A program made the translations under genes and the position numbers. Shown piece by piece: positions 2,798 through 45,589 of a stretch of DNA of 64,000 nucleotides; the stretch's first letter is position 1, and the number at the start of each line of letters is the position of its first letter. Location of the stretch: the NCBI GenBank assembly GCA_018399255.1, contig JAGYPA010000001.1, positions 1,019-65,018 of the forward strand, given 5' to 3'. Origin of the DNA: Spirochaetales bacterium. GTDB lineage: Bacteria; Spirochaetota; Spirochaetia; JABMQR01. The notes beneath the pieces are model-generated. The model did not search any database. It saw only the letters and a list, made by a program, of their open reading frames with translations, and was not told where the DNA came from.

Positions 2798-3529
2798 TCA
2801 CCCATATCTCCTATATACAGAGGCTACATGACCATCCCTGAGAGCTGAGGAAAGGTTATCGAAGGTTGGTTCCGTATACCCGCTGATGAAAAATGATCGC
2901 CTTCCGATTGAAGCAGGATAATGAGCATCGGATCCAGTGATTACTGTATTACTGTATACCTCTGCTGTTGGCGGCAGAGAGAGTGATTCTACGGCACTGT
3001 AGGGTAAATCGGGAAGGAAGCCAAGCTGTGAAACAGCACCGTTGGCGGGTCGGTCGATATGAGCAGGTATAACCAGCCCCCCCCTGTCAAGAACCAGCGG
3101 GACAAGATCAAAAAACGAAATGGATGAACTGCTGAAAAGACTGACATCGACAAACCCCAGGACCTGTTCGTCGGGATCAACAATAACCTGATCTCCGAAA
3201 ATATCAGGATCATTGGCTATATCCGGCAGTGATGCTTCAATTAAATTCCCGAATTTTTCAGCCTGCCCCAGTTCTCTGAACAGGCAGACGACATGAACCT
3301 CTTCAAAGGTGTTAACCTCCAGTCCGAATACCGGCGTTATCCCGGCTCTGCGGCAGCAGACAGCAAAAGCCGGCAGGTTGCGGGTTGAGTTGTGGTCGGT
3401 AAGGGCAAGAATGTCAATACCCCTGGCAGCGGCTCCCTGAACCAGAACCTCCGGAGACATCTCGAGACTACCGCAGGGGCTGAGACAAGAATGGTTATGA
3501 AGGTCCGTACGGATCAGATTTCCGTTCAT
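2798..3529 (-). CDS. PHP-domain (polymerase/histidinol-phosphatase-like) metal-dependent phosphoesterase.
   Basis: N-terminal DLHNHS and TDHNS motifs followed by later HID and GSDAH motifs, as in PHP domains. Confidence 0.7.
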   Translation of the reverse strand: MNGNLIRTDLHNHSCLSPCGSLEMSPEVLVQGAAARGIDILALTDHNSTRNLPAFAVCCRRAGITPVFGLEVNTFEEVHVVCLFRELGQAEKFGNLIEASLPDIANDPDIFGDQVIVDPDEQVLGFVDVSLFSSSSISFFDLVPLVLDRGGLVIPAHIDRPANGAVSQLGFLPDLPYSAVESLSLPPTAEVYSNTVITGSDAHYPASIGRRSFFISGYTEPTFDNLSSALRDGHVASVYRRYG

Positions 3530-7618: not shown

Positions 7619-7671
7619 CTGTTCAGAGTACAGAGTTTCCGGGAGCCATTCAAGAGAAATCCATAAATCAG

Positions 7672-7708
7672 GATAAAAAAAAGGCTGCCTTGAATAGGAG
7701 CCTTTTTT
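7672..7708 (-). terminator. Rho-independent terminator downstream of the ferredoxin gene. It is symmetric, with an A-run before and a T-run after the stem.
   Basis: aaaaaaaAGGCTgCC ttgaata GGAGCCTtttttt gives an 8-bp stem with a 1-nt bulge. On the minus strand it is followed by TTTTTTTT. Confidence 0.6.
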
Positions 7709-7763
7709 AATCCTTTTCTCTGGATCATGCAGTGCTCTACATAATCCGGTATCTGTTTAGAAG

Positions 7764-7931
7764 CTAACCGGCAATAATTGCTTCGGTAGGACATACATCT
7801 GCGCAAGCGCCGCAGTCAGTACACAGATCAGCATCGATTACATAGATGTCACCTTCAGAAATTGCATCTACGGGACATTCTGGAAGGCAGCTGCCGCATG
7901 CTATGCATGCATCAGTAATTTTGTAAGCCAT
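7764..7931 (-). CDS. Ferredoxin, 2x[4Fe-4S] clostridial type, 55 aa. It is absent from the ORF track because it is under 60 aa.
   Basis: Own translation: MAYKITDACIACGSCLPECPVDAISEGDIYVIDADLCTDCGACADVCPTEAIIAG, with two CxxCxxCxxxCP motifs. An AAGGAG RBS lies 6 nt upstream. Confidence 0.8.
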   Translation of the reverse strand: MAYKITDACIACGSCLPECPVDAISEGDIYVIDADLCTDCGACADVCPTEAIIAG

Positions 7932-8133
7932 GGAAGTCTCCTTATCATGAAATTATGTTTACCTGACTATATACCTCCTGCCAATGGCTAGTCAAGAAAC
8001 CGCCTGGAGAGAAAGCGGGAAATCAGGCAAGAGAAACCATCGAAAAAAAATATTATGTTTTTATAGTAACAATATGTTATTATCTGGACATTACGTTATT
8101 TTTGTTTTATTATAATTTCTAAGGAGTTTGATT

Positions 8134-8886
8134 GTGAAAATTGTCATAAACGGCTATGGAAGAATGGGAAAGCTTATCCGGCAAACCGCTCTTTCCCGCG
8201 GACACCAGATAACTGCGATCATCGACCCCGCTGAAGAACTTCCAGAAGTAACCGAAAAAGAACTTACCGCTGCAAGTATCAAGGATTCGGATGTGGTAAT
8301 TGATTTTACGGTACCCCAAACGGCAGTGAAGAATATTTCCGTTATTGCTGATGCCGGAGTCTCAGCAGTTATAGGAACCACCGGATGGTATGACCATGAA
8401 TCGGAAGTGAAAGCACTTGTTGAGCGCGCCGGCACCGGGCTCATCTGGTCAGGAAATTTCTCCCTCGGGGTGAATCTTCTTTTTCAGATCATCAGGGAAA
8501 CCGGGGCGATAATGAACAATTTTCCCGAATATGATGTGATGATACATGAGTTTCACCATGCTGGAAAAGCTGATAGTCCGTCAGGTACAGCAGAGATGCT
8601 CAGCACGTTCCTTATTGACGCCGTTGACCGTAAAAGTCGAAAAGTAACTGAGGCTCTTCAGCGACGGATAGAACCCGATGAACTGCATGTATCCTCAACC
8701 CGCGGCGGAAATATTCCTGGTACGCACACTATAGTATTTGACAGCAGTGAAGACACCATTGAAATTACTCATCGGGCAAGAAACAGAATGGGATTTGCCC
8801 TTGGAGCAGTTAAGGCTGCCGAATGGATAGCCGGCAAAACCGGTTATTATTCTCTAGATGATATGATGCACAGCATCCTTCAGTAA
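8134..8886 (+). CDS. dapB: 4-hydroxy-tetrahydrodipicolinate reductase. A GTG start 7 nt after AAGGAG is preferred over the TTG at 8128.
   Basis: N-terminal Rossmann motif VINGYGRMG and the EFHHAGKADSPSGTA active-site block. Confidence 0.9.
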   Translation: MKIVINGYGRMGKLIRQTALSRGHQITAIIDPAEELPEVTEKELTAASIKDSDVVIDFTVPQTAVKNISVIADAGVSAVIGTTGWYDHESEVKALVERAGTGLIWSGNFSLGVNLLFQIIRETGAIMNNFPEYDVMIHEFHHAGKADSPSGTAEMLSTFLIDAVDRKSRKVTEALQRRIEPDELHVSSTRGGNIPGTHTIVFDSSEDTIEITHRARNRMGFALGAVKAAEWIAGKTGYYSLDDMMHSILQ

Positions 8887-8915
8887 TAATAATTAAGATT
8901 GAGAGGAGATTGAAA

Positions 8916-9803
8916 ATGAATAGAGAATATCGCGGTGTATATACCGCTTTGATTACCCCCTTTACAAAGTACGGAAGTGTGGATGAGCTGGCGCTGGAAA
9001 AAACTATTGCTTATCAGATATCACAGGGAATAGATGGATTGGTCCCCTGTGGAACAACCGGAGAAAGTCCAACCCTTTCCCATGAAGAGCACGACCGGGT
9101 CATCGAGCTGACAGTAAAGTTTGCTGCCGGTAAAGTGCCGGTAATAGCAGGAACCGGCAGCAATGCAACCTCCGAAGCGATAAGGCTTTCCCGTCATGCC
9201 CAGACTGCCGGGGTTGATGCGGTTCTGCTTGTAAGTCCATATTATAACAAGCCAACCCAGAAAGGACTGTACCTTCATTTCAAGGCCATTGCAGATGCGG
9301 TTACGATACCCTGCATCATCTACAATATTCAGGGAAGAACTGGCGTAAACATTGAAACAGATACCCTTGTGCGATTAATGCATGACTGTCCAAATATAAC
9401 GGTTGTTAAAGAGGCCTCCGGCAATCTGGACCAGATGAAGGAAGTCATCAGCCGTCGTAAGGATAACTTCTCCGTTCTTTCCGGTGATGACAATATCTGT
9501 ATGAGCCTGATAAAAGCAGGAGGAGACGGAGTAATCTCAGTTGCTTCAAACCTTGTTCCCGGCATGATGGTAAAAATGGTTCATCTGGCTCTGGAGGGGA
9601 AATACGAAGAGGCAGAAGCAATCGAGAACAGGCTGAAGCCCTTTTTCACAGCTTGCTTTGTAGAGACAAACCCGATTCCCATAAAAACAGCCATGGCTGC
9701 AAAAGGGTGGTGTGAAGAAGTCTTTCGACTGCCGCTCTGTTCGCTTTCCTCGGATGAACACCGGAAAGTGGTAGAAGAAGCATTAGTCGGTCTCGATTTT
9801 TGA
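8916..9803 (+). CDS. dapA: 4-hydroxy-tetrahydrodipicolinate synthase.
   Basis: GTTGESPTLS, the conserved Lys region (VKEASG) and the overall DapA/DHDPS pattern. An AGGAG RBS lies 7 nt upstream of the ATG at 8916. Confidence 0.9.
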   Translation: MNREYRGVYTALITPFTKYGSVDELALEKTIAYQISQGIDGLVPCGTTGESPTLSHEEHDRVIELTVKFAAGKVPVIAGTGSNATSEAIRLSRHAQTAGVDAVLLVSPYYNKPTQKGLYLHFKAIADAVTIPCIIYNIQGRTGVNIETDTLVRLMHDCPNITVVKEASGNLDQMKEVISRRKDNFSVLSGDDNICMSLIKAGGDGVISVASNLVPGMMVKMVHLALEGKYEEAEAIENRLKPFFTACFVETNPIPIKTAMAAKGWCEEVFRLPLCSLSSDEHRKVVEEALVGLDF

Positions 9804-9848
9804 GAGCTTGCTAATCCATTTTAACTATGTAAGGAGTCTACAGACAGT

Positions 9849-11078
9849 ATGGCAACAATAAACAGTAATTACAGAAAGCTGTCAGCAGGATATTTGTTTC
9901 CCGAGATTGGGCGCAGAACCCGGGAATTTCAGAAGAATAACCCCGAGGCTCGACTGATGCGCCTGGGAATCGGAAACACTACAGAGCCGCTTACCCCGAC
10001 TATTATAGGGGGACTGCATACGGGAACGAAAAAACTTGCTGATGTTGAAACTTACACCGGATATGGTGATGAACAGGGAAATACCGCCTTGCGTGAAGCC
10101 CTTGCTGCTTTCTATGCTGCACGGGGTGTGAGCATATCGCCGGAGGATATTTTTGTAAGTGATGGGGCGAAGCCTGATTCCAGCAACATCCAGTCAATTT
10201 TCGGTCCAAATGATGTGATAGCGGTTCAGGATCCGGCCTATCCAGTCTATGTCGATTCCAATGTAATTGCCGGCAGAGCGGGGCAGTACGACAAGGAACA
10301 GGCAAAATATTCTGATCTGGTGTATATGGACTGCAGCGAGGAAAACGGGTTTTTTCCCGAAGTGCCCGACCGGAAAGTTGATGTACTGTATCTTTGCAGC
10401 CCTAACAATCCTACAGGAGCTGTTGCTGATAGACATCAGCTGAAAAGTTTTGTAGATTATGCCCGCAGAAACAAGGCTGTGATCATTTTTGATGCATCGT
10501 ACTCGGAGTATATATCAGATCCTGAACTTCCCCGTTCTATCTATGAAATTGAAGGTGCTGAGGAATGTTCCATAGAAATTAACAGTTTTTCCAAGTTTGC
10601 CGGTTTTACCGGGGTGCGTCTTGGTTGGAGCATAGTTCCGGAAAAACTGACCGTGGAAGATTCGAAACCTGGAGAGCTGCGGAGCATGTGGTTCAGACGG
10701 CAGACCACATTCTTCAACGGAGCTTCGAATATTGTTCAGGATGGTGGATTGGCGGTTCTGTCCCCAGAAGGCCTGGCAGAGTGCCAGGAAGTCATCGACT
10801 ATTATATGGAAAATGCCCGCATAATCAGAAGCGGTTTACAGTCAATCGGGCTCACGGTTTTCGGCGGCGATAATGCACCCTATTTATGGCTCAAAACTCC
10901 CGGCAGCATGACTTCATGGGAGTTTTTTGATAAACTTCTGCAGGAAGCCTGGGTTATCGGTACTCCCGGTTCAGGCTTCGGACCAGGGGGAGAAGGATAC
11001 TTTCGCTTAAGTGCCTTCGGCCATCGTGAAGACATACAAGCAGCGGTTAGCCAGATAGTTACTCGTCTGCAGCTGTAA
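9849..11078 (+). CDS. dapL: LL-diaminopimelate aminotransferase (DapL-type, PLP-dependent).
   Basis: 409 aa aminotransferase class I. The N-terminal NYRKLSAGYLFPEIGRR... motif and the SFSKFAGFTGVRLGW Lys region are typical of DapL. Confidence 0.85.
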   Translation: MATINSNYRKLSAGYLFPEIGRRTREFQKNNPEARLMRLGIGNTTEPLTPTIIGGLHTGTKKLADVETYTGYGDEQGNTALREALAAFYAARGVSISPEDIFVSDGAKPDSSNIQSIFGPNDVIAVQDPAYPVYVDSNVIAGRAGQYDKEQAKYSDLVYMDCSEENGFFPEVPDRKVDVLYLCSPNNPTGAVADRHQLKSFVDYARRNKAVIIFDASYSEYISDPELPRSIYEIEGAEECSIEINSFSKFAGFTGVRLGWSIVPEKLTVEDSKPGELRSMWFRRQTTFFNGASNIVQDGGLAVLSPEGLAECQEVIDYYMENARIIRSGLQSIGLTVFGGDNAPYLWLKTPGSMTSWEFFDKLLQEAWVIGTPGSGFGPGGEGYFRLSAFGHREDIQAAVSQIVTRLQL

Positions 11079-11118
11079 TTCAGTGCAAAATTATTAATTT
11101 AATTCAGGAGATAAACAT

Positions 11119-12381
11119 ATGAGCTCAGCCCCGCTTGCCCTGACCCTCAGTCAGCTGGAAAAGATTTGTGAGACCTTCCCTACACCGTTTCACCTATATG
11201 ATGAGAAACGGATTCGTGAAAACGCCCGCGCGATGAAAGATGCATTCAGCTGGATTTCCGGCTTTAAAAACTATTTTGCCGTAAAAGCATGCCCGAATCT
11301 CGCAATTATGGAAATCCTGCGGGAAGAAGGATTCGGGGCGGACTGCAGTTCATTGCCTGAACTCCTTCTGGCAGAAAAGACAGGAATTACGGGCGAAGAC
11401 ATCATGTTCACATCTAATGACACTCCCGAAGAAGAATTTATTGAAGCAGCCCGACTGGGGGCCGTCCTGAACCTCGATGACATTACCCACATTGAAACCA
11501 TGGAAAAATCTGTCGGTATCCCTGAACTTGTCAGCTTCAGATATAATCCTGGAGAAGCAAGAACCGGTAATGCAATCATCGGTCACCCTTCGGAAGCAAA
11601 ATACGGAGTAACTTCTGTGCAGATTCTGGATGCCTATCGCCTAATGAAAGAGAAGGGTGTCAAGCGATTCGGTCTGCATACGATGGTCGCCTCGAATGAA
11701 CTTAACGGAGACTACTTCATTGAGACCGCTCGCATGCTCTTTACCCTGGCAGCAGATATCTATAAAAAAACTGGTGTCAGGATAGAGTTTATCAATATGG
11801 GCGGAGGAATCGGGATTCCTTATAAACCTGAGGATGAAGCTGTCAGTCTTTCTCACATATCAGACGGAATGAAAGAACTGTATGAGCAGATTCTGGTTCC
11901 TTCCGGACTTGATCCGATGCGCATCGTTTTTGAATGCGGACGCATGGTTACCGGACCCTATGGATATCTGGTGAGCAGAGTACGGCATATAGCAGCGAAA
12001 TATAAAACTTATGCCGGACTGGATGCTTCCATGGCGAATCTGATGCGGCCCGCTCTTTATGGAGCCTATCACCATATCAGTGTTCCGGGAAAGGAGAATT
12101 TCCCTTCAGAAACTATTTACGATGTAACCGGATCGCTGTGTGAAAATAATGATAAATTTGCGATTGATCGTGCTCTTCCCAAGCTTGACCCCGGTGACCT
12201 GGTTGTTATTCACGATACCGGTGCCCACGGGTATTCAATGGGCTTCAACTACAACGGCAAGCTGCGTTCAAGCGAACTGCTCCTGCAGGAAAACGGACAG
12301 GTGCGATTGATTCGACGTGCGGAGCGCATCGAAGACTATTTTGCAACGCTTTCCTTTGACGAAGAGACTATAAATCTCTAA
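11119..12381 (+). CDS. lysA: Diaminopimelate decarboxylase.
   Basis: PLP fold-III decarboxylase motifs (YFAVKACPN, GGGIGIPY, the CENNDKF region), 420 aa. An AGGAG RBS lies 8 nt upstream. Confidence 0.9.
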   Translation: MSSAPLALTLSQLEKICETFPTPFHLYDEKRIRENARAMKDAFSWISGFKNYFAVKACPNLAIMEILREEGFGADCSSLPELLLAEKTGITGEDIMFTSNDTPEEEFIEAARLGAVLNLDDITHIETMEKSVGIPELVSFRYNPGEARTGNAIIGHPSEAKYGVTSVQILDAYRLMKEKGVKRFGLHTMVASNELNGDYFIETARMLFTLAADIYKKTGVRIEFINMGGGIGIPYKPEDEAVSLSHISDGMKELYEQILVPSGLDPMRIVFECGRMVTGPYGYLVSRVRHIAAKYKTYAGLDASMANLMRPALYGAYHHISVPGKENFPSETIYDVTGSLCENNDKFAIDRALPKLDPGDLVVIHDTGAHGYSMGFNYNGKLRSSELLLQENGQVRLIRRAERIEDYFATLSFDEETINL

Positions 12382-12399: not shown

Positions 12400-12426
12400 G
12401 AGGCTGCCGGGAAACCCGGCAGCCTC
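12400..12426. terminator. GC-rich perfect hairpin between the convergent lysA and glnN genes; likely a transcription terminator/insulator.
   Basis: GAGGCTGCCGGG aaa CCCGGCAGCCTC forms a 12-bp perfect stem. A weak U-run (CUUUCUU) follows on the minus strand. Confidence 0.55.
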
Positions 12427-12451: not shown

Positions 12452-14575
12452 CTAGAGGCGAAAAAGCATGTCCTCATACGAGGGATACGGCCAGCAGCTT
12501 TTATCAGTTATTTTTTCAAGTGAATCACCCTCCATGCGCAGCTTGGCCATAGCGGGTACAACATTATTGCGGTAGGCGGTTGCCTGGGCAATGACATCAT
12601 GTTCCAGTTCAAGTGCTTTACCGATCTCTTCTTCAAGAAGGTCCGATTTCTTGAACAGTTTATTGATGTGAAAAGAGAGTTCCTTAGCCAGTTTCTCCTG
12701 GCCGGGAGTTTTAAAACCTGACTCTTTCTGGGATGAGATAGAATTGAGCACTTCCTGGAGATAACGGGTGGTCGCGGGTGCTATCAGGCGCTTAGCCATC
12801 TCCACCATCACACCAGCTTCAATATTTATCTGTTTACTGTAGGTTTCCAGATAGATTTCCAGGCGTGATTCGAGCTCAGCCCGGGTAAAGACTTTCTGCT
12901 TTTCAAAGAGATTTACACAGGTGTCTGACACCATTTCCTGTAAAGCTTCAACCGTTGATGTAAGATTCGGCAGACCCCTCCTGGCAGCTTCCTCGACCCA
13001 TTCTTCAGAATAGCCGTTTCCATTAAAGACGACCCGCCTGTGCCGACTGTAGTATTCTTTGACAATCAGCTTGATTTCAGCCAGCTTGTCCTCGGCTTGT
13101 TCAAGTCTTTCCGAAAATTCATCCAGTATTTCCGCAATAGTTGTATTGATCATAACATTAGGGCCGGCAAGTGATTGGGATGACCCGACCATTCTGAATT
13201 CAAACTTGTTGCCGGTAAAGGCAAAGGGTGAAGTCCGGTTGCGGTCGGTCATATCGCGTGGGAAAGTCGGCAGTGTGGTAACGCCAACCTCCAGCACCTG
13301 CCCATCTCTCTTTTTGTAGATTGTATCTTCAGCCAGGGCATCAAGAATCTCAGTCAGCTGATCCCCGAGAAATATTGAGATGATGGCTGGAGGAGCTTCG
13401 TTGGCCCCAAGCCGGTGATCATTACCGGAGTTTGCTGCTGACAGGCGCAGATAGGGTGCATAGCGGTCTACGGCTGTCACAACAGCCGTCAGGAAAAGGA
13501 GAAACTGAGCATTGTCTTCCGGACTGTCTCCGGGCTGCAGCAAATTCTGTCCGTCATCGGTAGATATTGACCAGTTATTGTGCTTCCCGGATCCGTTAAC
13601 GCCGGCAAAAGGTTTTTCATGGAGGAGGGCTGCCATGCCGTGACGATTTGCAACGGCTTTTAAAGTTTCCATTACCAGCTGATTGTTATCAGTTGAAAGG
13701 TTTGAGGTTGAAAAGATTGATGCAAGCTCAAACTGGTTGGGAGCTACTTCGTTGTGCTGAGTTTTCGCAGAAATACCCAGTCTCCAGAGTTCGTAGTTGA
13801 GTTCCTGCATGAAAATTCCAACCCGCTCTTTAATAGCCCCGAAATAGTGGTCGTCAAGTTCCTGTCCCTTTGCACTCATTGTTCCAAATACTGTTCTTCC
13901 GGTAAGCAGCAAGTCTGGACGTTTTTGAAACAGTCCCTCATCAACTAAAAAGTATTCCTGTTCCGGTCCGACCGTTGATGTTACCCTGGTTGTTGTTGTA
14001 TTTCCCAGAGCGCGGAGCAGACGTACCGATGATTTGTTTACTGCTTCCATAGAACGGAGCAGGGGAACTTTTTTATCCAGAGCTTCTCCGGTATAGGAGA
14101 TGAAAGCCGTAGGAATTGTCAAAGTCTTCACCCCTCCCTGGTCTTTTATGAAAGCGGGAGAAGTGGTATCCCAAGCTGTATATCCGCGAGCTTCGAATGT
14201 TGCCCGCAGCCCGCCGTTAGGGAAGGAAGATGCATCCGGCTCTCCCTGAATAAGCTCCTTTCCCGAAAACTCCAATAAAACAGTACCATCAGAATTTGGA
14301 CTTATGAAAGAATCGTGCTTTTCAGCCGTTAGTCCGGTGAGAGGCTGAAACCAGTGAGTATAATGGGTTGCGCCCTTATCTATTGCCCAATCTTTCATGG
14401 AGTTGGCTACAATCTCTGCAATGTCTTTGGTGAGATTTGCTTTTCCTGCCTGCACCAGTTTAAGTTCTGCATAAGCATCAACAGGAAGACGCTCTTTCAT
14501 AACTGCATCACTGAAGCAGTTTTCACCGTAAATTTCCGTGAGCGGTTTTTTTAAAAAATCAATATGCTTTGCCAT
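12452..14575 (-). CDS. glnN: Glutamine synthetase type III (GSIII, GlnN). The start is revised to the ATG at 14575 (MAKHIDF), with AGGAG 6 nt upstream; the ORF-track TTG at 14590 overlaps that RBS.
   Basis: About 707 aa with the GSIII signature regions (VGPEQEYFLVD, NGSGKHNNWS, the HRLGANEAPP region). Confidence 0.9.
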   Translation of the reverse strand: MAKHIDFLKKPLTEIYGENCFSDAVMKERLPVDAYAELKLVQAGKANLTKDIAEIVANSMKDWAIDKGATHYTHWFQPLTGLTAEKHDSFISPNSDGTVLLEFSGKELIQGEPDASSFPNGGLRATFEARGYTAWDTTSPAFIKDQGGVKTLTIPTAFISYTGEALDKKVPLLRSMEAVNKSSVRLLRALGNTTTTRVTSTVGPEQEYFLVDEGLFQKRPDLLLTGRTVFGTMSAKGQELDDHYFGAIKERVGIFMQELNYELWRLGISAKTQHNEVAPNQFELASIFSTSNLSTDNNQLVMETLKAVANRHGMAALLHEKPFAGVNGSGKHNNWSISTDDGQNLLQPGDSPEDNAQFLLFLTAVVTAVDRYAPYLRLSAANSGNDHRLGANEAPPAIISIFLGDQLTEILDALAEDTIYKKRDGQVLEVGVTTLPTFPRDMTDRNRTSPFAFTGNKFEFRMVGSSQSLAGPNVMINTTIAEILDEFSERLEQAEDKLAEIKLIVKEYYSRHRRVVFNGNGYSEEWVEEAARRGLPNLTSTVEALQEMVSDTCVNLFEKQKVFTRAELESRLEIYLETYSKQINIEAGVMVEMAKRLIAPATTRYLQEVLNSISSQKESGFKTPGQEKLAKELSFHINKLFKKSDLLEEEIGKALELEHDVIAQATAYRNNVVPAMAKLRMEGDSLEKITDKSCWPYPSYEDMLFRL

Positions 14576-14613: not shown

Positions 14614-14629
14614 TGCAAATAGTATGCCA
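14614..14629 (-). promoter_or_regulatory. Sigma54 (-24/-12) promoter for glnN.
   Basis: The minus strand reads TGGCAT-actat-TTGCA with GG-N10-GC spacing exact. The predicted TSS is about 14603, about 28 nt upstream of the ATG. Confidence 0.7.
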
Positions 14630-14742
14630 TATATGGAACCTGATTAGGAATGATTAAATCATAAGCTTATAGAGTAAAGATTTACTTACTATTTGCAAGT
14701 AATATTTCCGAAATGTCAGTATGATCTTCAGTCTGTAAATAA

Positions 14743-14784
14743 TACATATATGTAGGTTAAAAATTCATAAACTACATATATGTA
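14743..14784. promoter_or_regulatory. Pair of perfect 12-bp palindromes TACATATATGTA, spaced 30 bp start-to-start. Predicted enhancer/UAS for the GAF-type sigma54 activator.
   Basis: Copies at 14743-14754 and 14773-14784. They lie 115-155 bp upstream of the glnN -24 element. The same architecture recurs upstream of amt. Confidence 0.55.
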
Positions 14785-14789
14785 ACTAT

Positions 14790-15131
14790 TTAGCCTATGG
14801 CAGTCTTACCTGAATCACCATTTCTTATTCGGATAACTTCTTCTATCGGCATTACAAATATTTTTCCGTCCCCGATAGTATCCGTTCTAGCTCCCGAAAT
14901 AATGCCTTCTATAGTTGGTTTTACATATTCATCATTGACAGCGATCTCGATCCGTACCTTTTTCAGTAAATTCACCTCAATCTCAACCCCCCTGTATGTT
15001 TCCGTGAACCCTTTCTGCTGACCGCACCCAAGGGCATTGGTTACCGATATCTTGTAAATCTTTCGTTTATATAATTCCTGCTTAACAAAGTTAAGCTTTC
15101 CCGGCTGTATGTAAGCAATTATTAATTTCAT
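14790..15131 (-). CDS. glnB: Nitrogen regulatory protein P-II (GlnB/GlnK). The start is revised to MKLIIAY, with AAGGAG 6 nt upstream.
   Basis: 113 aa from the revised start. The T-loop region (QKGFTETYRGVEI) and C-terminal PII signature are present. It sits 25 bp downstream of amt, the classic amt-glnK pairing. Confidence 0.9.
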   Translation of the reverse strand: MKLIIAYIQPGKLNFVKQELYKRKIYKISVTNALGCGQQKGFTETYRGVEIEVNLLKKVRIEIAVNDEYVKPTIEGIISGARTDTIGDGKIFVMPIEEVIRIRNGDSGKTAIG

Positions 15132-15156
15132 ATCTATCTCCTTGTCTTGCAGAATC

Positions 15157-16479
15157 CTACATGGTGGTGAAAATCTGGAATCCGTTATATGATTCAGATC
15201 CGTGTTCACTTATATCAAGCCCGGAAAGTTCCTCATCCTCAGATACTCTGAGACCGGTTATCTTCTTTATTGTCAGAAACAGCATAAGAGAAGCGGCAGA
15301 TGCCCAGACGAATACCGCGGCTGCCCCGATAATCTGCACCAGCAGCTGAGAAAAACCGCCTCCGTAAAACAGTCCCTTAATATCATCTGTATTTGCAAAT
15401 AAACCGACAGCAATAGTACCCCAGGCTCCGCATACACCATGTACCGATATCGCTCCGACAGGATCATCAATGTGCAGAATTTTATCAAAAAACTCTACCG
15501 ACAATACAACCAGTAATCCTGCAGCGGCTCCAATAATGAGTGCTCCAAAAGGGGTTACCACGGCCGTAGGTGCTGTTATACCTACCAATCCGGCAAGAGC
15601 GCCGTTCATGGTCATAGAAATATCCGGCTTACCGAACATCATCCAGGACAGAGCCATAGCTCCGATTCCTCCAGCTGAGGCACCGAGGGTAGTTGTTACC
15701 GCAATAGAGGCTATGGAAAGATCAGTACCGCTGAGAGTGGATCCGGCATTGAATCCATACCAGCCAAACCAGAGAATAAATACTCCAAGGCTTGCCAGCG
15801 GGAGATTATGCCCTGGAATCGCCTTTACCGTTGTTGAACCATCCACTTTGATATATTTCCCTGTTCGGGGTCCCAGAACGAGAGCTCCGATCATAGCAGC
15901 CCAGCCTCCGACAGAATGCACTACCGTAGAACCGGCAAAGTCGTGGAATCCCATCCCGGCCAGCCAGCCGCCTCCCCAGATCCAATGACCGGAAATTGGA
16001 TAAATCAGGCCGGATATAAACACCGTGTAGATCAAATACGATGAAAACTTGGTTCTTTCGGCCATTGCTCCGGAAACAATAGTTGCTGCAGTAGCCGCAA
16101 ATACTACCTGAAACATCCAGTCGCGAAACATAGCCGGACCAGCGCCGCGTATAAAAAACTGTGATGTTCCCACAAGACCTGAAACTGAGGCCCCGTACAT
16201 AAACGCCCATCCCACAGCCCAGAAAACTACAGCTCCGGTACAGAAATCCATGAGATTCTTCATAATGATATTGCTGGCATTCTTTGCCCTTGTAAGACCG
16301 GTCTCCACCATAGCAAAACCCGCCTGCATAAAGAAAACCAATGATGCGGCAAGAATGAGCCAGATCATGTCCATGGAATTCTGGTGAAGCACCAATACCT
16401 CTTCAACGGTTTCTGCAAAGAGCGTGCCTGGACCAATACATCCAATCGCAGACGCCAGTAAAGCAGTTTTTTTCTTCAT
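15157..16479 (-). CDS. amt: Ammonium transporter (Amt/MEP family). The start is revised to MKKKTALLA, which has a signal peptide and AGGAG 6 nt upstream.
   Basis: Multiple TM segments and conserved Amt motifs ([13 protein letters not shown], the twin-His region). Confidence 0.9.
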
Positions 16480-16516
16480 ATCTTTCTCCTGGATGAGTGT
16501 GTGTTGGGAAAGTCTA

Positions 16517-16532
16517 TGCAGTAACCATGCCA
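16517..16532 (-). promoter_or_regulatory. Sigma54 (-24/-12) promoter for amt-glnB.
   Basis: The minus strand reads TGGCAT-ggtta-CTGCA with GG-N10-GC exact. It lies inside the ORF-track N-terminal extension, which supports the shorter start at 16479. Confidence 0.65.
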
Positions 16533-16654
16533 AAATGCTGTGAGGAATAGCAAAAGCAATCATTGATTGGATAAATAGTGAGAGCTGCTGAAGGTATTCA
16601 GATGGTTTTTTTAAGGATGGAAAAAAAATTCAGGATGAGCAACCAGAATAAAGC

Positions 16655-16696
16655 TTCAATTATGTAGGATATCTGCTTATGAGTTACAATTATGCA
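16655..16696. promoter_or_regulatory. Pair of near-palindromes TTCAATTATGTA and TACAATTATGCA, spaced 30 bp. Predicted enhancer/UAS for the amt-glnB sigma54 promoter.
   Basis: Same TACA-N4-TGTA family and same 30-bp spacing as the glnN pair. They lie 125-165 bp upstream of the -24 element and end just downstream of the regulator gene's stop codon. Confidence 0.5.
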
Positions 16697-16698
16697 GC

Positions 16699-18240
16699 TT
16701 ATACGTTTCCAGATTTGTACTTTTCAGGATTGATATGATACTTATCCACACGCAGTCCCATTATTCGTTCTGATATACCCAAAGTTCTGGCTGCTTTAGC
16801 ACGGTTTCCCCGGGCTGATTTAAGCGCATCGGCGATTATCTCACGTTCAAAATCATCGAGCGCCTGCGCCAAAGTCTCTGAAAACTGAGTATTGGAAGAT
16901 TCAGCCGACTGCAGGCTGGGGGGGAGGTGATACCCGTGAATTACATTATCATTACTCAGCAGAACAGCTCGTTCAATGCAGTTCTCCAATTCACGAACAT
17001 TCCCCGGCCAATGATAGCTCATAAGAAGATCAATGGCTGCACTGGTAATTCTTTTAACGCTTCGGTGATTTCGTTTGTTATATTTTTCGATAAAATGGTC
17101 ACAAAGAAGCATAATATCACTCTTACGCTGACGAAGCGGCGGAATATGAATAGGGAATACATGCAGACGATAATAGAGATCTTCACGGAATTTCCCCTTC
17201 GTAATCCCCTCTTCGAGATTACGATTTGTTGCGGTAATCAGCCGCACATTCACTTTTATTGTTTTATTGCCGCCAACCCGTTCAAATTCCTGCTCCTGAA
17301 GCACCCGCAGCAGCTTTACTTGCATCTGCGGCGATAATTCCCCGATCTCATCAAGAAAAAGAGTGCCCTGATCGGCAAGTTCAAAACGCCCCTTCCGGGC
17401 TGCCACCGCTCCGGTAAAAGCCCCTTTCTCATGTCCGAAAAGCTCACTCTCAATAATGCTTTCCGGGAGGGCGGCACAGTTCACCTTGACAAACGGCTTG
17501 TCAGCTCTGAAGCTGTTATAGTGGATTTCATAAGCAACGAGCTCTTTACCCGTACCGCTTTCACCCCGAATCATCACAGTTGCTTCACTTTTGCACACCT
17601 GACCGATCAGTTCAAACGTCTCCTGAATCGCCTGTGCTTTTCCAATGATATTTGCCGGCTGAAACCTCTCTTTGAGTTCCCGGAGCAGACGGTCATTCTC
17701 CGCCTGGAGCCGCTCCTTTTCTTCGCGGATTTCCTGTCGAAGCTTGACAGCCCTGGCAATCATTGATGAGATAATCGAAAGCAGCTTAATATACACAGAA
17801 AGATCGAAGGACTCATGATTCCGGCAGGTGACATTCAGGGTTCCGATGGTACTGTTGCCAATTTTGATGGGAACCGACAGAAAAGCTGTTCTGACATCGG
17901 TCTTCTGTTCGTTCAGTTCAGCCCCGGTTCGATTTATAAGAGTCTGACTATGGGCTATATCAGGGATAATAATAGGTTTACCGGTTTTTACCACCTGGCC
18001 CGTTATACCTTCCCCTAATTGATAGCGACCCCTCTTTTGCTGTTTTTCTGTAAGTCCATAGGATGATTCAATAAGAATCTCATCAGTTTCCCGGTTAAGA
18101 AGCGTTATGGCTCCGCGAATCATAGGACTGTGTTCGGCAAGTGCCGTCAGAATAGGGGCAATTATCTGTTTAAGATCCTCGGAATCGTCAAGGATTTTGC
18201 TGATAGTCAGAAGCAGTGGAAGCTCTTCTACGTCTTTCAT
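16699..18240 (-). CDS. Sigma54-dependent transcriptional activator, NifA-type architecture (GAF, AAA+, Fis-type HTH). It has no receiver domain.
   Basis: N-terminal GAF domain, then Walker A GESGTGKE, the GAFTGA motif (EKGAFTGA) and the ELEN/VRELEN arginine finger, and a C-terminal HTH ([22 protein letters not shown]). Confidence 0.9.
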
Positions 18241-18250
18241 ATATCAATGC

Positions 18251-18262
18251 TACAATATTGTA
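18251..18262. promoter_or_regulatory. Single perfect palindrome TACAATATTGTA. It lies 11-22 bp upstream of the activator's own start codon; predicted autoregulatory operator.
   Basis: Fifth member of the TACA-N4-TGTA family in this window. It overlaps the expected promoter/RBS region of the regulator gene. Confidence 0.45.
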
Positions 18263-18294
18263 GGATTATTTTCAAGCGGTAACTTAGAACGCCA

Positions 18295-20301
18295 TTACTC
18301 CCTGCCGGCACCAAGCCTGGCTCTGATTCCGGCAAAATAGTCGGAAGCCGCAGATGAATCGGCAATGGTATCTTCCTTGACCTTCCCGATAACATCTTTC
18401 GGCAGCTCTTCAAGAAACCTTGAAGGCTGGGAATCCGTCTGTTCCCGCAGCACCTTTCTTGTCCGGGCACTGGTCATAAAAAGATTTTCCCTGGCCCTGG
18501 TTATGGCGACATAGAATAAGCGCCGTTCCTCCTCGATGCTTTCAGGGTTTTCTTCAATCGCCCGTTTGTGCGGGATAATATGGTCTTCCACACCTGCAAG
18601 AAAAACCGTTTGAAATTCCAGCCCTTTAGAAGCATGGATTGTCATCAGATTTACTTTTCCGCGCTCCTGGTCAGGTTCACTCTTTCCTTTGAGAGAAATT
18701 GAATTCAAAAAATCATACAATCCTTTCTTCATTGAATCAGGATTGTTTTCCCAGTTATTAATAATGTTGATGAAGATATCAATATTTTTCATTTTCCATT
18801 GGGCCAGATTTTCATTACCCGGATGTTCCGCAATAATATGATTTTTATAGGAAATAGAGGAAAGCATATCTGATACCACTGGACCAAACTTTTTGCTTGA
18901 AAATACTAATCGTCTATAATTCTCAATATGATCAACTAATTCAGACACTTTTATCCGGATTGATTCCCGTATGCTTATATCAGCGGCATGACTCACGGCA
19001 GTCATAGCCGAAAACAGGGAATAGTTGTGATTCTCAGAAAGACCCCTCAAATATTCTAATGTAGATTTGCCGATCCCTCGTCTAGGGGTATTGATAACCC
19101 TCAGCAGGCTCATATCGTCATCAGGATTAGCAAGTATGCGCAGATAGGAAATAATATCCTTTATCTCTTTACGTTGGAAAAAACTTTGCCCCCCGGAAAC
19201 CTTGTAGGGTATAGAAGCCGCAAGGAAAGCCCTTTCGATTCCGGTAATAAGGTTGTTTGTGCGAACCAGTACACCAAAGTTATCATACCTCAACTGATGA
19301 CGGATAAGCAGTTCACGAATTTTATCGCCTATAAAATCTGCCTCTTCCTGCTCATCTTCAGGATGGAAAAGCGCGATAATTCCATTATTTCCCGTTCCTG
19401 TCCAGAGATTCTTATCCTTCCTGTTGGTGTTGTTGCTAATCAGGCTGTTGGCAATTTTGATAATTGAACCGGTAGAGCGGTAGTTCTGTTCCAGCTTGAT
19501 TTCGCGGCACTCAGGAAAATCCTCTTCAAACTTGACAATATTTCGATAGTCGGCTCCCCGCCAGGAATAGATAGACTGATCATCATCACCGACGACACAA
19601 ATATTACGGTGTTTTTCAGCCAGCTGTTTTACCACTGCATACTGCTGCAGGGAAGTGTCCTGAAACTCATCAACCAGTATATACTGGAACTTCTTACGGT
19701 AGTATTCGAGAACCTCCGGATGCTTTGCAAAAAGAGCGAGAGGCTGCATGATCAGATCATCAAAATCAACGGCATTGTAGAGCTTGAGATGAGCATTGTA
19801 TTCTTCAAATATCGGCCTGACCGAAAGGGTTTCACCTGAAAATTGAGTGCGGCCGGTTTTAACAGCCGAAATAGTCCCGGCAAGCTCGTAAAGATCAGTC
19901 TCTTTCGGATCTATCTTGAGCTCGGTGAGAACTGCCTTGAGCATACTCATCTGGTCCTGCTGATCATAAATCGTAAAGCGGGGGGCATATCCAAGTAATG
20001 TTCCATGCTTCTTGAGTACCGAAAGTCCAAAAGCATGAAAGGTAGATGCGGTAAGCTTTTTCAGAGATCGGCCAGTAACAAGCTGTATTCTTTCAGCCAT
20101 TTCCTCGGCAGCTTTATTGGTAAACGTCAGTGCAAGAATCTCGGATTGCGGAATCCCCTGTTCAAGCATATAGGCTATCCGATAGGTAATCATGCGGGTT
20201 TTTCCAGAACCCGCTCCCGCAATAATGAGAAGCGGTCCATGAATCGCCGCTGCGGCATCCGCCTGTTCAGGATTCAATTCTTCAGTAAGCTGCAGTGCCA
20301 T
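18295..20301 (-). CDS. pcrA: ATP-dependent DNA helicase, UvrD/PcrA/Rep family (SF1).
   Basis: Motif I AGAGSGKT, motif II VDEFQDT, plus motifs III-VI (YRST, VRTN, TIHASKGLEF). Confidence 0.9.
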   Translation of the reverse strand: MALQLTEELNPEQADAAAAIHGPLLIIAGAGSGKTRMITYRIAYMLEQGIPQSEILALTFTNKAAEEMAERIQLVTGRSLKKLTASTFHAFGLSVLKKHGTLLGYAPRFTIYDQQDQMSMLKAVLTELKIDPKETDLYELAGTISAVKTGRTQFSGETLSVRPIFEEYNAHLKLYNAVDFDDLIMQPLALFAKHPEVLEYYRKKFQYILVDEFQDTSLQQYAVVKQLAEKHRNICVVGDDDQSIYSWRGADYRNIVKFEEDFPECREIKLEQNYRSTGSIIKIANSLISNNTNRKDKNLWTGTGNNGIIALFHPEDEQEEADFIGDKIRELLIRHQLRYDNFGVLVRTNNLITGIERAFLAASIPYKVSGGQSFFQRKEIKDIISYLRILANPDDDMSLLRVINTPRRGIGKSTLEYLRGLSENHNYSLFSAMTAVSHAADISIRESIRIKVSELVDHIENYRRLVFSSKKFGPVVSDMLSSISYKNHIIAEHPGNENLAQWKMKNIDIFINIINNWENNPDSMKKGLYDFLNSISLKGKSEPDQERGKVNLMTIHASKGLEFQTVFLAGVEDHIIPHKRAIEENPESIEEERRLFYVAITRARENLFMTSARTRKVLREQTDSQPSRFLEELPKDVIGKVKEDTIADSSAASDYFAGIRARLGAGRE

Positions 20302-20336
20302 AGTGCTCAGTTCCTACATGTTTGTTTGTATGAGAA

Positions 20337-42276: not shown

Positions 42277-44520
42277 ATGGAAAAACACAAACGACGTCTG
42301 ATAACCTCAGCCTTGCCCTATGTCAACAACATACCTCACCTCGGGAACCTTATCCAGGTGCTTTCGGCCGATGTTTTTGCCAGGTTCTGCCGGATACGCG
42401 GGTATGAAACCCTCTATGTGTGCGGAACTGATGAATATGGTACAGCAACCGAAACCCGCGCCCTGCAGGAGGGAATAACCCCGCAGGAGCTTTGTGATCA
42501 CTACAATGCAATACATACCGAAATATATGACTGGTTCACCATCGCTTTCGACCGGTTTGGAAGGACTTCGACCCCCAGGCAGACTGAAATAGTCCAGGAT
42601 ATTTTTTCCAAAGCTGATGCTGCAGGCTATATAGTCGAGCGTGAGATTGATCAGCTTTTCTGTCATTCCTGCGACCGCTTTCTTGCAGATCGTTTTGTCA
42701 ATGGAATCTGTCCGCATTGCGGCTATGAAGATGCCAGAGGTGATCAGTGTGAACATTGCGGGAAACTGCTGGATCCCACCGAACTCTCTCACCCGAAGTG
42801 CGGCGTTTGCGGAAGCGAGCCGGAACTGCGCTCGACAAAACACCTCTATCTGGATCTTCCCGGGGTGCTTCCCTTGCTTGAAAGTTGGATAGATAAAGCT
42901 TCAGTCGAAGGGTTCTGGGCCAGGAATGCCGTTCAGATGACAAAAAGCTGGATCAGAGACGGCTTAAAGGAACGCTGCATAACCCGTGACCTGAAATGGG
43001 GAATTCCGGTTCCCAAGGAAGGGTACGAAGGGAAAGTTTTTTATGTCTGGTTTGATGCTCCCATCGGATATATATCCATTTCAGCCAATCATACAGACGA
43101 CTGGGAATCGTGGTGGAAAAATCCGGATGAGGTGGAACTCTTTCAATTTATTGGAAAGGATAATATTCCGTTTCATACCGTTATTTTTCCCAGCTCACTG
43201 CTTGCAAGCGGCGACAACTGGACGCTTCTGCACCATATGTCATCAACAGAATATTTGAACTATGAAAACGGCAAATTTTCGAAAAGCAAAGGAATAGGCG
43301 TGTTTGGTACCGATGCCCGGGATACCGGAATTCCGGCTGACGTCTGGCGTTTCTACATCTACTATAATCGTCCTGAAAAAGCTGATGCTCAGTTTACCTG
43401 GGCTGATTTTCAGGAAAAGGTGAACGGCGAACTGATCGGTAATCTTGGTAATCTGGTTAACCGGACGATTTCCTTTATCAATCGGTTTTATGACAGCAGT
43501 GTCCCTGAAGGTGCTGCAGATGCCGAATTTCTGAGCGAAGTAAAAGAACGTGAAGCTGAAGTGACCCTGCATCTTGAGCGGGCTGAGCTCAGGGATGGTC
43601 TCAGGAAAATTTTTGCTCTTTCTTCATTCGGCAATAGGACTTTTCAGGCTGGTGAACCATGGAAAAGCCGCAAAGAACAGCCGGAAGCAGCAGCCGGACT
43701 GATCAGAAGCCTGGCTTATCTGATCAGGGATCTTGGAATTATGATAGAACCGTATCTTCCGGGAACGTCCAGACGTATTCTCGGGTTTTTCGGGATTAAT
43801 GAGATAGCCTGGGATCAGTTAGGAATCTTTACCGGTCTTGATTCTGTTGGTAAGGCCGAAATTCTTTTTGATAAGCTTGAAGATGAGACAATTGCCGTAC
43901 TTCGTGACAAATTTTCGGGAACCCAGGATGATCGCAAGCTCGAAGCTGCAAAGGATTCAAAGGAGATGGAGATGGAGATGGAAGAATCTATAATTGTGCA
44001 GCCGCAGGAAGTATCTGCCGGAATACGGTTTAATGAGACTGCAGACTTGAGGGCAGCCAGAATAACCGCTGTAGAACGGCATCCTGAAGCAGATAAGCTC
44101 TATATTGAAACCCTTGATGTCGGTGAGAGCGAACCGCGTACGATAGTTTCCGGACTGGTTCCTTTTTATTCCGAAGATGAGCTGCTGGGAAGGACAATCA
44201 TTCTCGTATATAATTTAAAGCCCGCTAAGCTTAGAGGGGTTAAAAGTAACGGGATGCTGCTTGCTGCAAGCCGTAATGGTGCTGACGGAGGAAAGGAAGA
44301 AGTAGAGGTCCTGTTTGCCGACTGGGCAGAGCCGGGGCAGCGGATTTCTGTCGGCGATCTTGAAATTCCAGCCGAAGACAGGAAGAGAATTACGGTTGAT
44401 ACGTTCTTCTCCATCCCCCTTTCTGTTTCCGATCACGAGGTGAAAGTCGATAATCTATCTCTGTCAGCAGCAGGAAAATCTATTCGGACTGCTAGAATTT
44501 CACATGGAGATGTTGGTTAG
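42277..44520 (+). CDS. metG: Methionyl-tRNA synthetase with a C-terminal tRNA-binding (EMAP/Trbp111-like) domain. The start is called at MEKHKRRLITSALPYVNN.
   Basis: HIGH motif (PYVNNIPHLGN), Zn knuckle CPHCG..CEHCG, KMSKS (KFSKSKG), and a C-terminal OB-fold domain. Confidence 0.9.
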   Translation: MEKHKRRLITSALPYVNNIPHLGNLIQVLSADVFARFCRIRGYETLYVCGTDEYGTATETRALQEGITPQELCDHYNAIHTEIYDWFTIAFDRFGRTSTPRQTEIVQDIFSKADAAGYIVEREIDQLFCHSCDRFLADRFVNGICPHCGYEDARGDQCEHCGKLLDPTELSHPKCGVCGSEPELRSTKHLYLDLPGVLPLLESWIDKASVEGFWARNAVQMTKSWIRDGLKERCITRDLKWGIPVPKEGYEGKVFYVWFDAPIGYISISANHTDDWESWWKNPDEVELFQFIGKDNIPFHTVIFPSSLLASGDNWTLLHHMSSTEYLNYENGKFSKSKGIGVFGTDARDTGIPADVWRFYIYYNRPEKADAQFTWADFQEKVNGELIGNLGNLVNRTISFINRFYDSSVPEGAADAEFLSEVKEREAEVTLHLERAELRDGLRKIFALSSFGNRTFQAGEPWKSRKEQPEAAAGLIRSLAYLIRDLGIMIEPYLPGTSRRILGFFGINEIAWDQLGIFTGLDSVGKAEILFDKLEDETIAVLRDKFSGTQDDRKLEAAKDSKEMEMEMEESIIVQPQEVSAGIRFNETADLRAARITAVERHPEADKLYIETLDVGESEPRTIVSGLVPFYSEDELLGRTIILVYNLKPAKLRGVKSNGMLLAASRNGADGGKEEVEVLFADWAEPGQRISVGDLEIPAEDRKRITVDTFFSIPLSVSDHEVKVDNLSLSAAGKSIRTARISHGDVG

Positions 44521-45589
44521 GCCTGCCTCTCTGCAGGCGCTCGAAAATGCAGAAAATCCTTTCCAGTCCAGGTTCTGGGCAGAAATAAAGAAATCGAACG
44601 GATGGGATCCGCATGCATTTGACCTCTCTTTTTCAAAAGCTCGATTACCAGGCAGCTCCGACTGCATTGACAAGACCAGCGTTTTGCTGGTCTTGTCAAA
44701 AAATATTTTCCCGGGAGCTGGCATAGCCTATGTCCCTTTTGGGCCTGACCTGCCGCAAGGGAACATTGACGCTTCAGACTTGAAGCAATTAACCTTTCAA
44801 CTGAAAAAATTAATAAAAAAAAATCTTTTTCTTGTAAGATTCGACTTCCCATGGAACTCAGTTATTACTCAGAGGAAAACTGACAGCAATACGAACCCCG
44901 TTCGTACCAGGCTGCTGCCTCGTCGACTATCCTATGCTATTCAGCCTGAAGCAACATTGCTTCTCGATTTAGCACCCCCTGTGGAAAGTATCTATGATAA
45001 TTTCAGGAAACGGGCTAAGCGGCACATTGTCCGGGGGATGCAGTCTCTCGTTACGGAAACGTTTACTAATCCAGTTCCTGAAGAAGTTTTTTCCGACTGG
45101 TATGATATATACAGAATAACTGCCCGACGGGACGGCTTTCATCCACGTTCATCGGAATACCTTCAGAAAATGCTGAGTTTGTCACAGAATGATAATAAAT
45201 CAACGGGATGCATGCTTACTGCAGCCCGACAGCACGGTCGCATGGTTGCCGGCAGCATAACCCTCAGATCCAGAAACATTGCTGTCTATTTGTTTGGCGC
45301 TTCTCTGCGGGAAGAGGGTCAAAAATCCAGTCCCTCATATCTTGTACAGTGGCAGGCCATTCAGGAAGCCAGGCGGCTGGGGTGCAGGGTGTATGATTTT
45401 TTTGGCATCTCTCCTGCTGATGCTGCTTCGGGAAAATCTCACCATCTTCAGAGTCTCGCCCAGTTTAAGCGGTCATTTGGCGGGATGTATGCTGAAAGGC
45501 CTGGAACCTGGGATGTACCGCTGCGTCCGTTGACCTATAAGTTGTTCACAATAGCGGAAAAGTACCGGATACATGCAGCCCGTTCATAA
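44504..45589 (+). CDS. FemAB-family (FemX/MurM-like) aminoacyl-tRNA-dependent peptidyltransferase candidate.
   Basis: 361 aa with two GNAT-like halves and an FGG/FK(R/K)xFGG C-terminal block typical of FemABX. It overlaps the metG end by 17 nt. Confidence 0.6.
   Translation: MEMLVRPASLQALENAENPFQSRFWAEIKKSNGWDPHAFDLSFSKARLPGSSDCIDKTSVLLVLSKNIFPGAGIAYVPFGPDLPQGNIDASDLKQLTFQLKKLIKKNLFLVRFDFPWNSVITQRKTDSNTNPVRTRLLPRRLSYAIQPEATLLLDLAPPVESIYDNFRKRAKRHIVRGMQSLVTETFTNPVPEEVFSDWYDIYRITARRDGFHPRSSEYLQKMLSLSQNDNKSTGCMLTAARQHGRMVAGSITLRSRNIAVYLFGASLREEGQKSSPSYLVQWQAIQEARRLGCRVYDFFGISPADAASGKSHHLQSLAQFKRSFGGMYAERPGTWDVPLRPLTYKLFTIAEKYRIHAARS

Follow-up and report, generated by a model that had tools for sequence, protein, structure and literature searches.

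Nitrogen genes, palindromes, and promoters of the locus

The 64,000-nucleotide (nt) stretch of Spirochaetales bacterium contig JAGYPA010000001.1 (assembly GCA_018399255.1; positions 1,019 to 65,018) analyzed here, referred to below as the window, carries a row of minus-strand genes. In order, they encode a UvrD-like helicase (18295 to 20301), a sigma-54 enhancer-binding protein (EBP) of 513 amino acids (aa) with GAF, sigma-54 AAA+, and HTH_8 domains (16699 to 18240), the 440-aa ammonium transporter Amt (15157 to 16479; start at 16479, with GGAGAAAGAT just before it), the 113-aa PII signal protein GlnB/GlnK (14790 to 15131), and the 707-aa type III glutamine synthetase GlnN (12452 to 14575; domains GSIII_N, Gln-synt_C, and Gln-synt_C-ter). 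A preliminary description of this DNA listed five 12-bp palindromes of the type TACA-W4-TGTA (W, A or T) at these genes, regarded them as enhancer sites of the EBP, and took this protein for the only such activator in the window; indeed, it is the only protein encoded there that has a GAFTGA motif.

All five palindromes are present at the positions reported. The candidate enhancer of glnN consists of two copies of TACATATATGTA, a promoter-proximal site at 14743 to 14754 and a distal site at 14773 to 14784, with centers at about -145 and -175, respectively, from the inferred start. In the candidate enhancer of amt-glnB, the proximal site TTCAATTATGTA (16655 to 16666; center at about -154) and the distal site TACAATTATGCA (16685 to 16696; center at about -184; 3 nt past the EBP stop codon) each have one mismatch. 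The start-to-start spacing is exactly 30 bp in both pairs, as claimed before. The remaining palindrome, TACAATATTGTA (18251 to 18262), is single and lies 10 nt before the ATG of the EBP gene, where it is predicted to act as an autoregulatory operator. Exact matches to TACAWWWWTGTA number three in the window, compared with 0.03 expected, and matches with at most one mismatch number seven, compared with 2.1 expected; neither count was reached in any of 100 shuffles. Two additional matches with at most one mismatch, at 33866 in the seryl-tRNA synthetase gene and at 39346 in a Mur ligase gene, were set aside as sites, being background-like and located in coding sequence. Site pairs with a spacing of 29 to 32 bp occur twice in the window and in none of 1,000 local-composition shuffles.

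Exact matches to the sigma-54 promoter consensus TGGCAY-N5-YTGCW were found on the minus strand upstream of glnN (TGGCATACTATTTGCA; 14614 to 14629) and amt-glnB (TGGCATGGTTACTGCA; 16517 to 16532), and these -24/-12 promoters are the sole intergenic exact matches in the window; a third exact match, at 45403, was set aside, as it falls within a FemAB-family gene (44504 to 45589). Measured to the GG of the -24 element, the site centers lie 120 and 150 bp upstream in the case of glnN and 129 and 159 bp upstream in the case of amt, in agreement with the earlier estimate of 115 to 165 bp. Both pairs thus have the properties by which the upstream activating sequences (UASs) of EBPs are recognized, i.e., dyad sites ~80 to 200 bp upstream of a -24/-12 promoter, with helical phasing both among the sites and relative to the promoter. 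The IHF consensus WATCAANNNNTTR was not found in the regulatory regions.

The single palindrome is arranged differently. Ahead of the EBP gene lies a sigma-70-like promoter, TTGAAA-17-TAGCAT (18247 to 18275, minus strand); it ends 6 nt before the ATG, and the palindrome fills its spacer. The minus-strand order of elements is TTGAAA, ATAATCC, the palindrome, GCAT, TGATAT, and ATG, and the -10 hexamer TAGCAT is composed of the final two palindrome bases and GCAT. No Shine-Dalgarno sequence was found before the ATG of the window EBP. In four spirochaete relatives (loci L081, L083, L084, and L209), the palindrome is located at the identical offset, 10 nt before the EBP ATG, and the arrangement TTGnnn-17-TAnnnT-6-ATG with a palindrome in the spacer is common to these four loci and the window. 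At a further locus (L210), which has a decayed palindrome and a divergent upstream gene, the TTGnnn-17-TAnnnT promoter is kept with an 8-nt gap to the ATG. The preliminary description was therefore right about the position of the fifth copy by the EBP start but not about its role as an enhancer, as it lies in a sigma-70-like promoter spacer. Such a location suggests autorepression, and a -10 box that ends 6 nt before the ATG, together with the lack of a Shine-Dalgarno sequence, implies a leaderless EBP mRNA. However, the case for a leaderless transcript is weakened by the sequence TGTAGGA, which at three of these five loci could be a Shine-Dalgarno sequence, i.e., a ribosome-binding site, and not a -10 box. 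We consider it rather probable that the EBP represses its own, possibly leaderless, transcript through this palindrome, where the negative sign of the autoregulation is what we infer from the promoter architecture.

Some other elements were identified in the surroundings of these genes. The UvrD-like helicase gene is preceded by a 35-bp gap that contains a copy of the palindrome with two mismatches and the typical tcc flank (tccTACATGTTTGTT; 20315 to 20326), which may be a weak single site or have arisen by chance. Between glnN and a convergent lysA-like gene, there is a strong GC-rich hairpin of 12 pairs (GAGGCTGCCGGG-TTT-CCCGGCAGCCTC; 12400 to 12426), which is probably a shared bidirectional terminator. 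A dapB-dapA-aminotransferase-lysA row for lysine biosynthesis (7619 to 12381) keeps its synteny in L081, L083, and L084, and the 509-bp gap ahead of it (7619 to 8127) contains another two-mismatch copy of the palindrome at 7839. An Rfam search of this gap detected neither a lysine riboswitch nor any other RNA family, and Rfam and tRNA scans of the window gave no matches.

Conservation of the pairs and association with an EBP family

Palindrome pairs 30 to 31 bp apart were also found upstream of amt and/or glnN in spirochaete relatives (L002, L006, L081/L082, L083, L084, L209, and L210), and every such pair is followed by a TGGCA-N6-TTGC promoter. The position of the glnN sites is conserved in L081, L083, L084, L209, and L210, and orthologous amt-upstream pairs are present in L084, L210, L002, and L006. 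An alignment of orthologous intergenic regions, which had been proposed as a check of the motif, was constructed for the glnN-upstream regions of six spirochaete loci, the EBPs of the five relatives being 68% to 82% identical to that of the window. The mean column identity was 45%, but neither site varied in its TACA or TGTA arm; pairs and promoters are kept in the diverged spacer, and no other conserved element was seen between pair and promoter in this alignment. The flanking bases extend the spirochaete motif to a 16-bp palindrome, CC-TACA-W4-TGTA-GG, with C frequencies per half-site of 71% at -1 and 62% at -2. With this extension, the distance between half-site centers is about one helical turn, which is the distance to be expected of a dimer with Fis-type helix-turn-helix (HTH) domains.

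Metagenome contigs were searched for TACAW4TGTA-N18/19-TACAW4TGTA alone, which yielded at least 120 loci. Among the matches listed, to which the metagenome counts in this paragraph refer, a sigma-54 promoter (score of at least 9/11 within 260 bp of the pair) was found by the pair in 46 of 117 nontandem loci; the background for a score of at least 10 is ~0.01 per 250 bp per strand. The first genes behind these promoters were amt (12 loci), glnN or glnA (11 loci), and glnB/K (4 loci), and further first genes were glnD, gltB, and genes for a BBP2 porin and an outer-membrane protein family of ~265 aa. The spacing within pairs was 30 bp in 37 cases and 31 bp in 22 cases, together 59 of 70. Distances from the proximal center to the -24 GG cluster at 83 to 86, 95 to 100, 107 to 110, 117 to 120, and 129 to 133 bp; these classes are about one helical turn apart and include the 120 and 129 bp of the window. 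Such clustering is the face-of-helix geometry typical of enhancer-binding proteins. The preliminary description had named a motif at background frequency, not associated with sigma-54 promoters, as the finding that would speak against it; the shuffles did not reach the observed counts (0 of 100) or pairs (0 of 1,000), and sigma-54 promoters and nitrogen genes are enriched beside the pairs. The proposed co-occurrence of pairs and GG-N10-GC promoters at nitrogen genes was likewise found in the metagenome contigs, with sigma-54 promoters before amt, glnB, glnN, glnA, gltB, and glnD.

In two metagenome loci, a single pair lies between near-symmetrical divergent sigma-54 promoters, from which it follows that the enhancer is bidirectional. 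In L091, the pair at 2970 to 3012 has promoters at 51 and 53 bp, with glnN on one side and gltB on the other, and in L135, the pair at 620 to 661 has promoters at 95 and 104 bp, with glnA on one side and gltB on the other. Secreted proteins of ~260 to 275 aa are encoded by the first gene behind the motif-associated sigma-54 promoter in seven loci (L168, L177, L190, L194, L116, L138, and L142) and thus recur as regulon members. They have no Pfam match or only a subthreshold match to Gcw_chp and share a conserved FGKYIWRGQ motif. This family is probably an outer-membrane beta-barrel and may be a porin for ammonium or nitrogen compounds.

The motif is associated with a distinct type of EBP. The recognition helix of the window EBP is SERIMGLR, and at least 28 contigs selected by the motif, many of them a few kilobases long, also encode an EBP with a recognition helix of the type (S/T)ER-x-x-(G/N)-(L/Y)-(R/K). 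The site precedes the EBP gene even away from nitrogen genes (L085). A scan of genome contigs was dominated by the generic AAA+ peptide VLQEQEFE and returned mostly unrelated EBPs and proteobacterial NifA proteins; the relevant loci were L001, L002, and L006 (spirochaetes), L003 to L005, and L007, and the remaining ones served as a negative control. In 80 loci that surround other EBPs and proteobacterial NifA proteins, pairs were confined to L002, L003, and L006, the EBPs of which all carry the helix type of the window. Furthermore, the bases flanking the motif covary with the helix class: CC goes with ERxMGLR, a weaker C with ERIxGYK, T with xRIxNYK, and TT with DVU1949, an EBP of Desulfovibrionales that is compared below. 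The ERILGYK class belongs to Planctomycetota (Sedimentisphaerales), and L003 belongs to Calditrichaceae. In a neighbor-joining tree without support values, the motif-linked EBPs form one clade and the proteobacterial NifA proteins are separate. The suggestion that the operator is particular to this lineage did not hold, because the motif was found with EBPs of Planctomycetota and Calditrichota also.

The window EBP has the GAF-AAA+-HTH architecture of NifA and scored 552.3 bits against the hidden Markov model TIGR01817 for nif-specific NifA (cutoff, 528.85), with a match to model positions 7 to 445 of 534. It was rejected as an NtrC, as its N terminus is a GAF domain with no match to the Response_reg (receiver) domain and its score against TIGR01818 (NtrC) was 351 bits, below the cutoff of 558.6. 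A 98% identical protein is encoded in a Spirochaetia metagenome-assembled genome, and hundreds of relatives with 63% to 82% identity are present in free-living Spirochaetota, including Spirochaeta thermophila, S. cellobiosiphila, Marispirochaeta, and Salinispira. Most of the named relatives have been automatically named "nif-specific transcriptional activator NifA." In the fetched spirochaete loci, the neighbors of the EBP gene are amt, glnB, glnN, and gltBD. No nif genes were found beside the EBP gene in the window or in 12 spirochaete loci, nor behind motif-associated promoters at the ~60 promoters examined. The NifA UAS, TGT-N10-ACA, is absent from the upstream regions of glnN, amt, and the EBP gene, and the motif does differ from it, as had been pointed out. 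The automatic name is doubtful for the window EBP, a NifA relative of the GAF type for which "nif-specific" is probably a misnomer. For the homologs in Spirochaetota and Planctomycetota that pass TIGR01817, this looks like systematic overannotation as NifA, since they adjoin amt, glnB, glnN, and gltBD and the NifA UAS is lacking. Use of these hundreds of "NifA" proteins as markers of diazotrophy or nif regulation would mislead.

Proposed mechanism and alternative explanations

Given the sites, promoters, and genes, their conservation and phasing, and the association with the EBP family, it is very probable that the two 30-bp-spaced pairs represent UASs for the adjacent GAF-AAA+-HTH sigma-54 activator. 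This activator probably switches on the ammonium assimilation genes of this spirochaete through the palindromes. We infer physical binding and the nature of the signal as follows. One EBP dimer would bind each 16-bp palindrome through its Fis-type HTH, and two dimers that occupy one face of the DNA at a distance of three helical turns could nucleate an active AAA+ hexamer. At the two -24/-12 promoters, those of glnN and amt-glnB, looping of the AT-rich spacer would allow the hexamer to touch the sigma-54 RNA polymerase in its closed state, and the promoter would be opened by ATP hydrolysis. Gating of the ATPase by nitrogen status (2-oxoglutarate or PII) may be the task of the NifA-like GAF domain, perhaps assisted by the regulon's own PII protein. 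The fifth palindrome, in the spacer of the sigma-70-type promoter, would let the EBP repress its own transcript.

Some observations weigh against activation of these genes by the EBP through the pairs. A literature search found no binding or expression data for the sites. The orthologous amt-upstream region of S. thermophila (L207, 11576 to 11770) has one weak site, TACAGAAATGTG. In this GC-rich thermophile, the amt sigma-54 promoter is retained; possible reasons for the single weak site are drift of the motif and a different location of the sites. In addition, RNA folding was predicted at the glnB-glnN junction (14725 to 14795, minus strand), where the two identical sites pair in RNA at -19.8 kcal/mol (z score, -5.2), and the corresponding junctions of L083, L084, L209, and L210 fold at -17 to -29 kcal/mol (z scores of -3 to -7).

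These folds, and the fact that each pair begins directly after a stop codon, would fit palindromes that act mainly as RNA hairpins terminating or stabilizing the EBP and amt-glnB mRNAs and not as DNA sites. However, folding is inconsistent across sites and loci, and the hairpin or terminator was rejected as the main explanation. The amt-upstream pair of the window folds no better than shuffled sequences (z score, +0.85), the same holds for L081, and the predicted folds are not homologous, since at some loci one site pairs with the other and at the rest a single site pairs with itself. Self-complementarity is often lacking in the central W4, no U-tract follows the pairs, and a terminator scan made no call there. 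Moreover, any protein-binding palindrome outdoes shuffled sequence in such a fold test, the same pairs occur between divergent promoters that have no upstream transcript (L091 and L135), and hairpins need no helical phasing to a downstream promoter. We regard this explanation as very unlikely, but in view of the stable RNA folds predicted for the glnB-glnN junction, a secondary role as terminator or stabilizer of amt-glnB may exist there. Chance formation of functionless AT-rich palindromes is suggested by the composition of the intergenic regions (64% to 72% AT versus 55% for the window) and by ~70 of the 120 metagenome matches listed, which have no sigma-54 promoter and several of which are simple repeats. 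It is effectively refuted by the shuffles, by the conservation of the sites at homologous positions across divergent spacers, and by the strong enrichment of sigma-54 promoters and nitrogen genes beside the pairs.

The palindromes could also be bound by another nitrogen-responsive factor encoded elsewhere, e.g., one that is CRP/NtcA-like or MerR/GlnR-like, the EBP using other sites; the window covers 64 kb of the genome. The cyanobacterial NtcA, a CRP-family activator of sigma-70 promoters that binds around -41, recognizes the box GTA-N8-TAC and has glnA, glnN, amt, and glnB in its regulon, and the window motif is similar in its TGTA and TACA half-sites and in these targets. However, its half-sites stand in the reverse order with a spacing of 4 instead of 8, and in order and spacing the motif is unlike the sites of both NtcA and GlnR. 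The location of the sites, 85 to 185 bp upstream of sigma-54 promoters and in helical phase, is the geometry of an EBP and not of class I or II sigma-70 activation. The motif co-occurs with the EBP family on short contigs and precedes the EBP gene, its flanking bases covary with the EBP recognition helix, and the six-locus alignment has no further conserved element between pair and promoter that the EBP might use. Recognition by such a factor is therefore improbable.

With binding by the EBP as the favored explanation, we lean slightly toward a wider proposal, in which a family of GAF-type EBPs, sister to proteobacterial NifA and routinely mislabeled as nif-specific NifA, is the master activator of ammonium assimilation in at least four phyla, namely Spirochaetota, Planctomycetota (Sedimentisphaerales), Calditrichota, and Desulfobacterota, in effect replacing NtrC. 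These proteins would share one conserved enhancer grammar. A pair of 16-bp ACA-N4-TGT palindromes would be separated by three helical turns and stand in phase with the -24 element, and the flanks would differ between lineages and coevolve with the recognition helix. The nif-specific NifA might then be a derived specialist of an older general nitrogen regulator. Nitrogen control in free-living spirochaetes, Planctomycetota, and Calditrichota is essentially without an experimental basis, and the locus offers a compact testable model with one regulator, two sigma-54 promoters, four activating sites, one auto-operator, and clear geometric rules.

Comparison with known nitrogen regulators

At the enteric promoter glnAp2, the enhancer consists of two strong sites for NtrC dimers, separated by about three helical turns and located at approximately -110 to -140 from the sigma-54 promoter, and it drives the genes for glutamine synthetase and ammonium assimilation; through an overlapping site, NtrC acts as a repressor of a sigma-70 promoter as well. 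By analogy, the window is predicted to work likewise, with paired sites, sigma-54 targets, and sigma-70 self-repression. NtrC belongs to the response regulators, with a receiver domain and phosphorylation by NtrB, and its binding site is TGCACC-N5-GGTGCA. The sensor of the window EBP is a GAF domain; this protein lacks a receiver domain, and its motif differs from that of NtrC.

NifA resembles the window system in its GAF-AAA+-HTH_8 architecture and in a 16-bp site located more than 100 bp upstream of a -24/-12 promoter. However, the NifA UAS is TGT-N10-ACA (Buck et al. 1986; TIGR01817), and the ACA-N4-TGT core of the window has the reverse half-site order, which is a further point against the proposed recognition by a NifA relative. 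The targets linked to the motif are amt, glnB, glnN, glnA, gltB, and glnD, unlike those of NifA, and the proteobacterial NifA loci of the control set lack the paired motif.

The closest counterpart is the single-component EBP DVU1949 of Desulfovibrionales, for which Kazakov et al. (2015, BMC Genomics 16:919; PMC4641369) predicted the 16-bp motif TTTACA-W4-TGTAAA, with sites such as GTTACATTTTTGTAAT and TTTACAATTATGTAAC that are often 30 to 32, ~42, or ~52 bp apart. The predicted DVU1949 regulon includes amt-glnB-glnD, glnN, glnA, gltB-like genes, and amino acid transporters and is autoregulated (PMC4641369). The operator is thus not undescribed, as had been assumed in the preliminary description, because the same core was predicted in 2015 with the same target genes (PMC4641369). 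Beyond this paper, nothing was found in the literature on spirochaete NifA, sigma-54 regulation of glnN, or DVU1949. Both systems have a single-component sigma-54 EBP, the 16-bp palindrome with its ACA-W4-TGT core, often in pairs, upstream of the sigma-54 promoters of amt-glnB and glnN, and a site at the regulator's own gene or operon. They differ in the flanks, which are TT...AA in Desulfovibrionales and CC...GG in spirochaetes, in the recognition helix (TPRQMGYR in DVU1949 and SERIMGLR in the window EBP), and in gene context, as DVU1949 is cotranscribed with ior genes and not adjacent to amt, whereas the window EBP gene adjoins amt.

Certain aspects of this comparison are less favorable. The DVU1949 motif is itself purely computational (PMC4641369), and the DNA-binding domains of DVU1949 and the window EBP, compared over 42 aa, are only ~38% identical, with R-x-M-G-x-R in common, that of DVU1949 being more like proteobacterial NifA. 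Orthology of the two proteins is therefore no more than plausible. A search with the 42-aa DVU1949 domain gave two fragments only, and L007, a proxy with a DVU1949-like domain, is basal to the clade of the window EBP in the neighbor-joining tree without support values. The window locus nevertheless supports and broadens a regulon so far only computationally predicted in Desulfovibrionales, and the novelty of the present results lies in the occurrence of the motif in spirochaetes and further phyla, in its variant with CC/GG flanks, and in a strict grammar of pairing and phasing.

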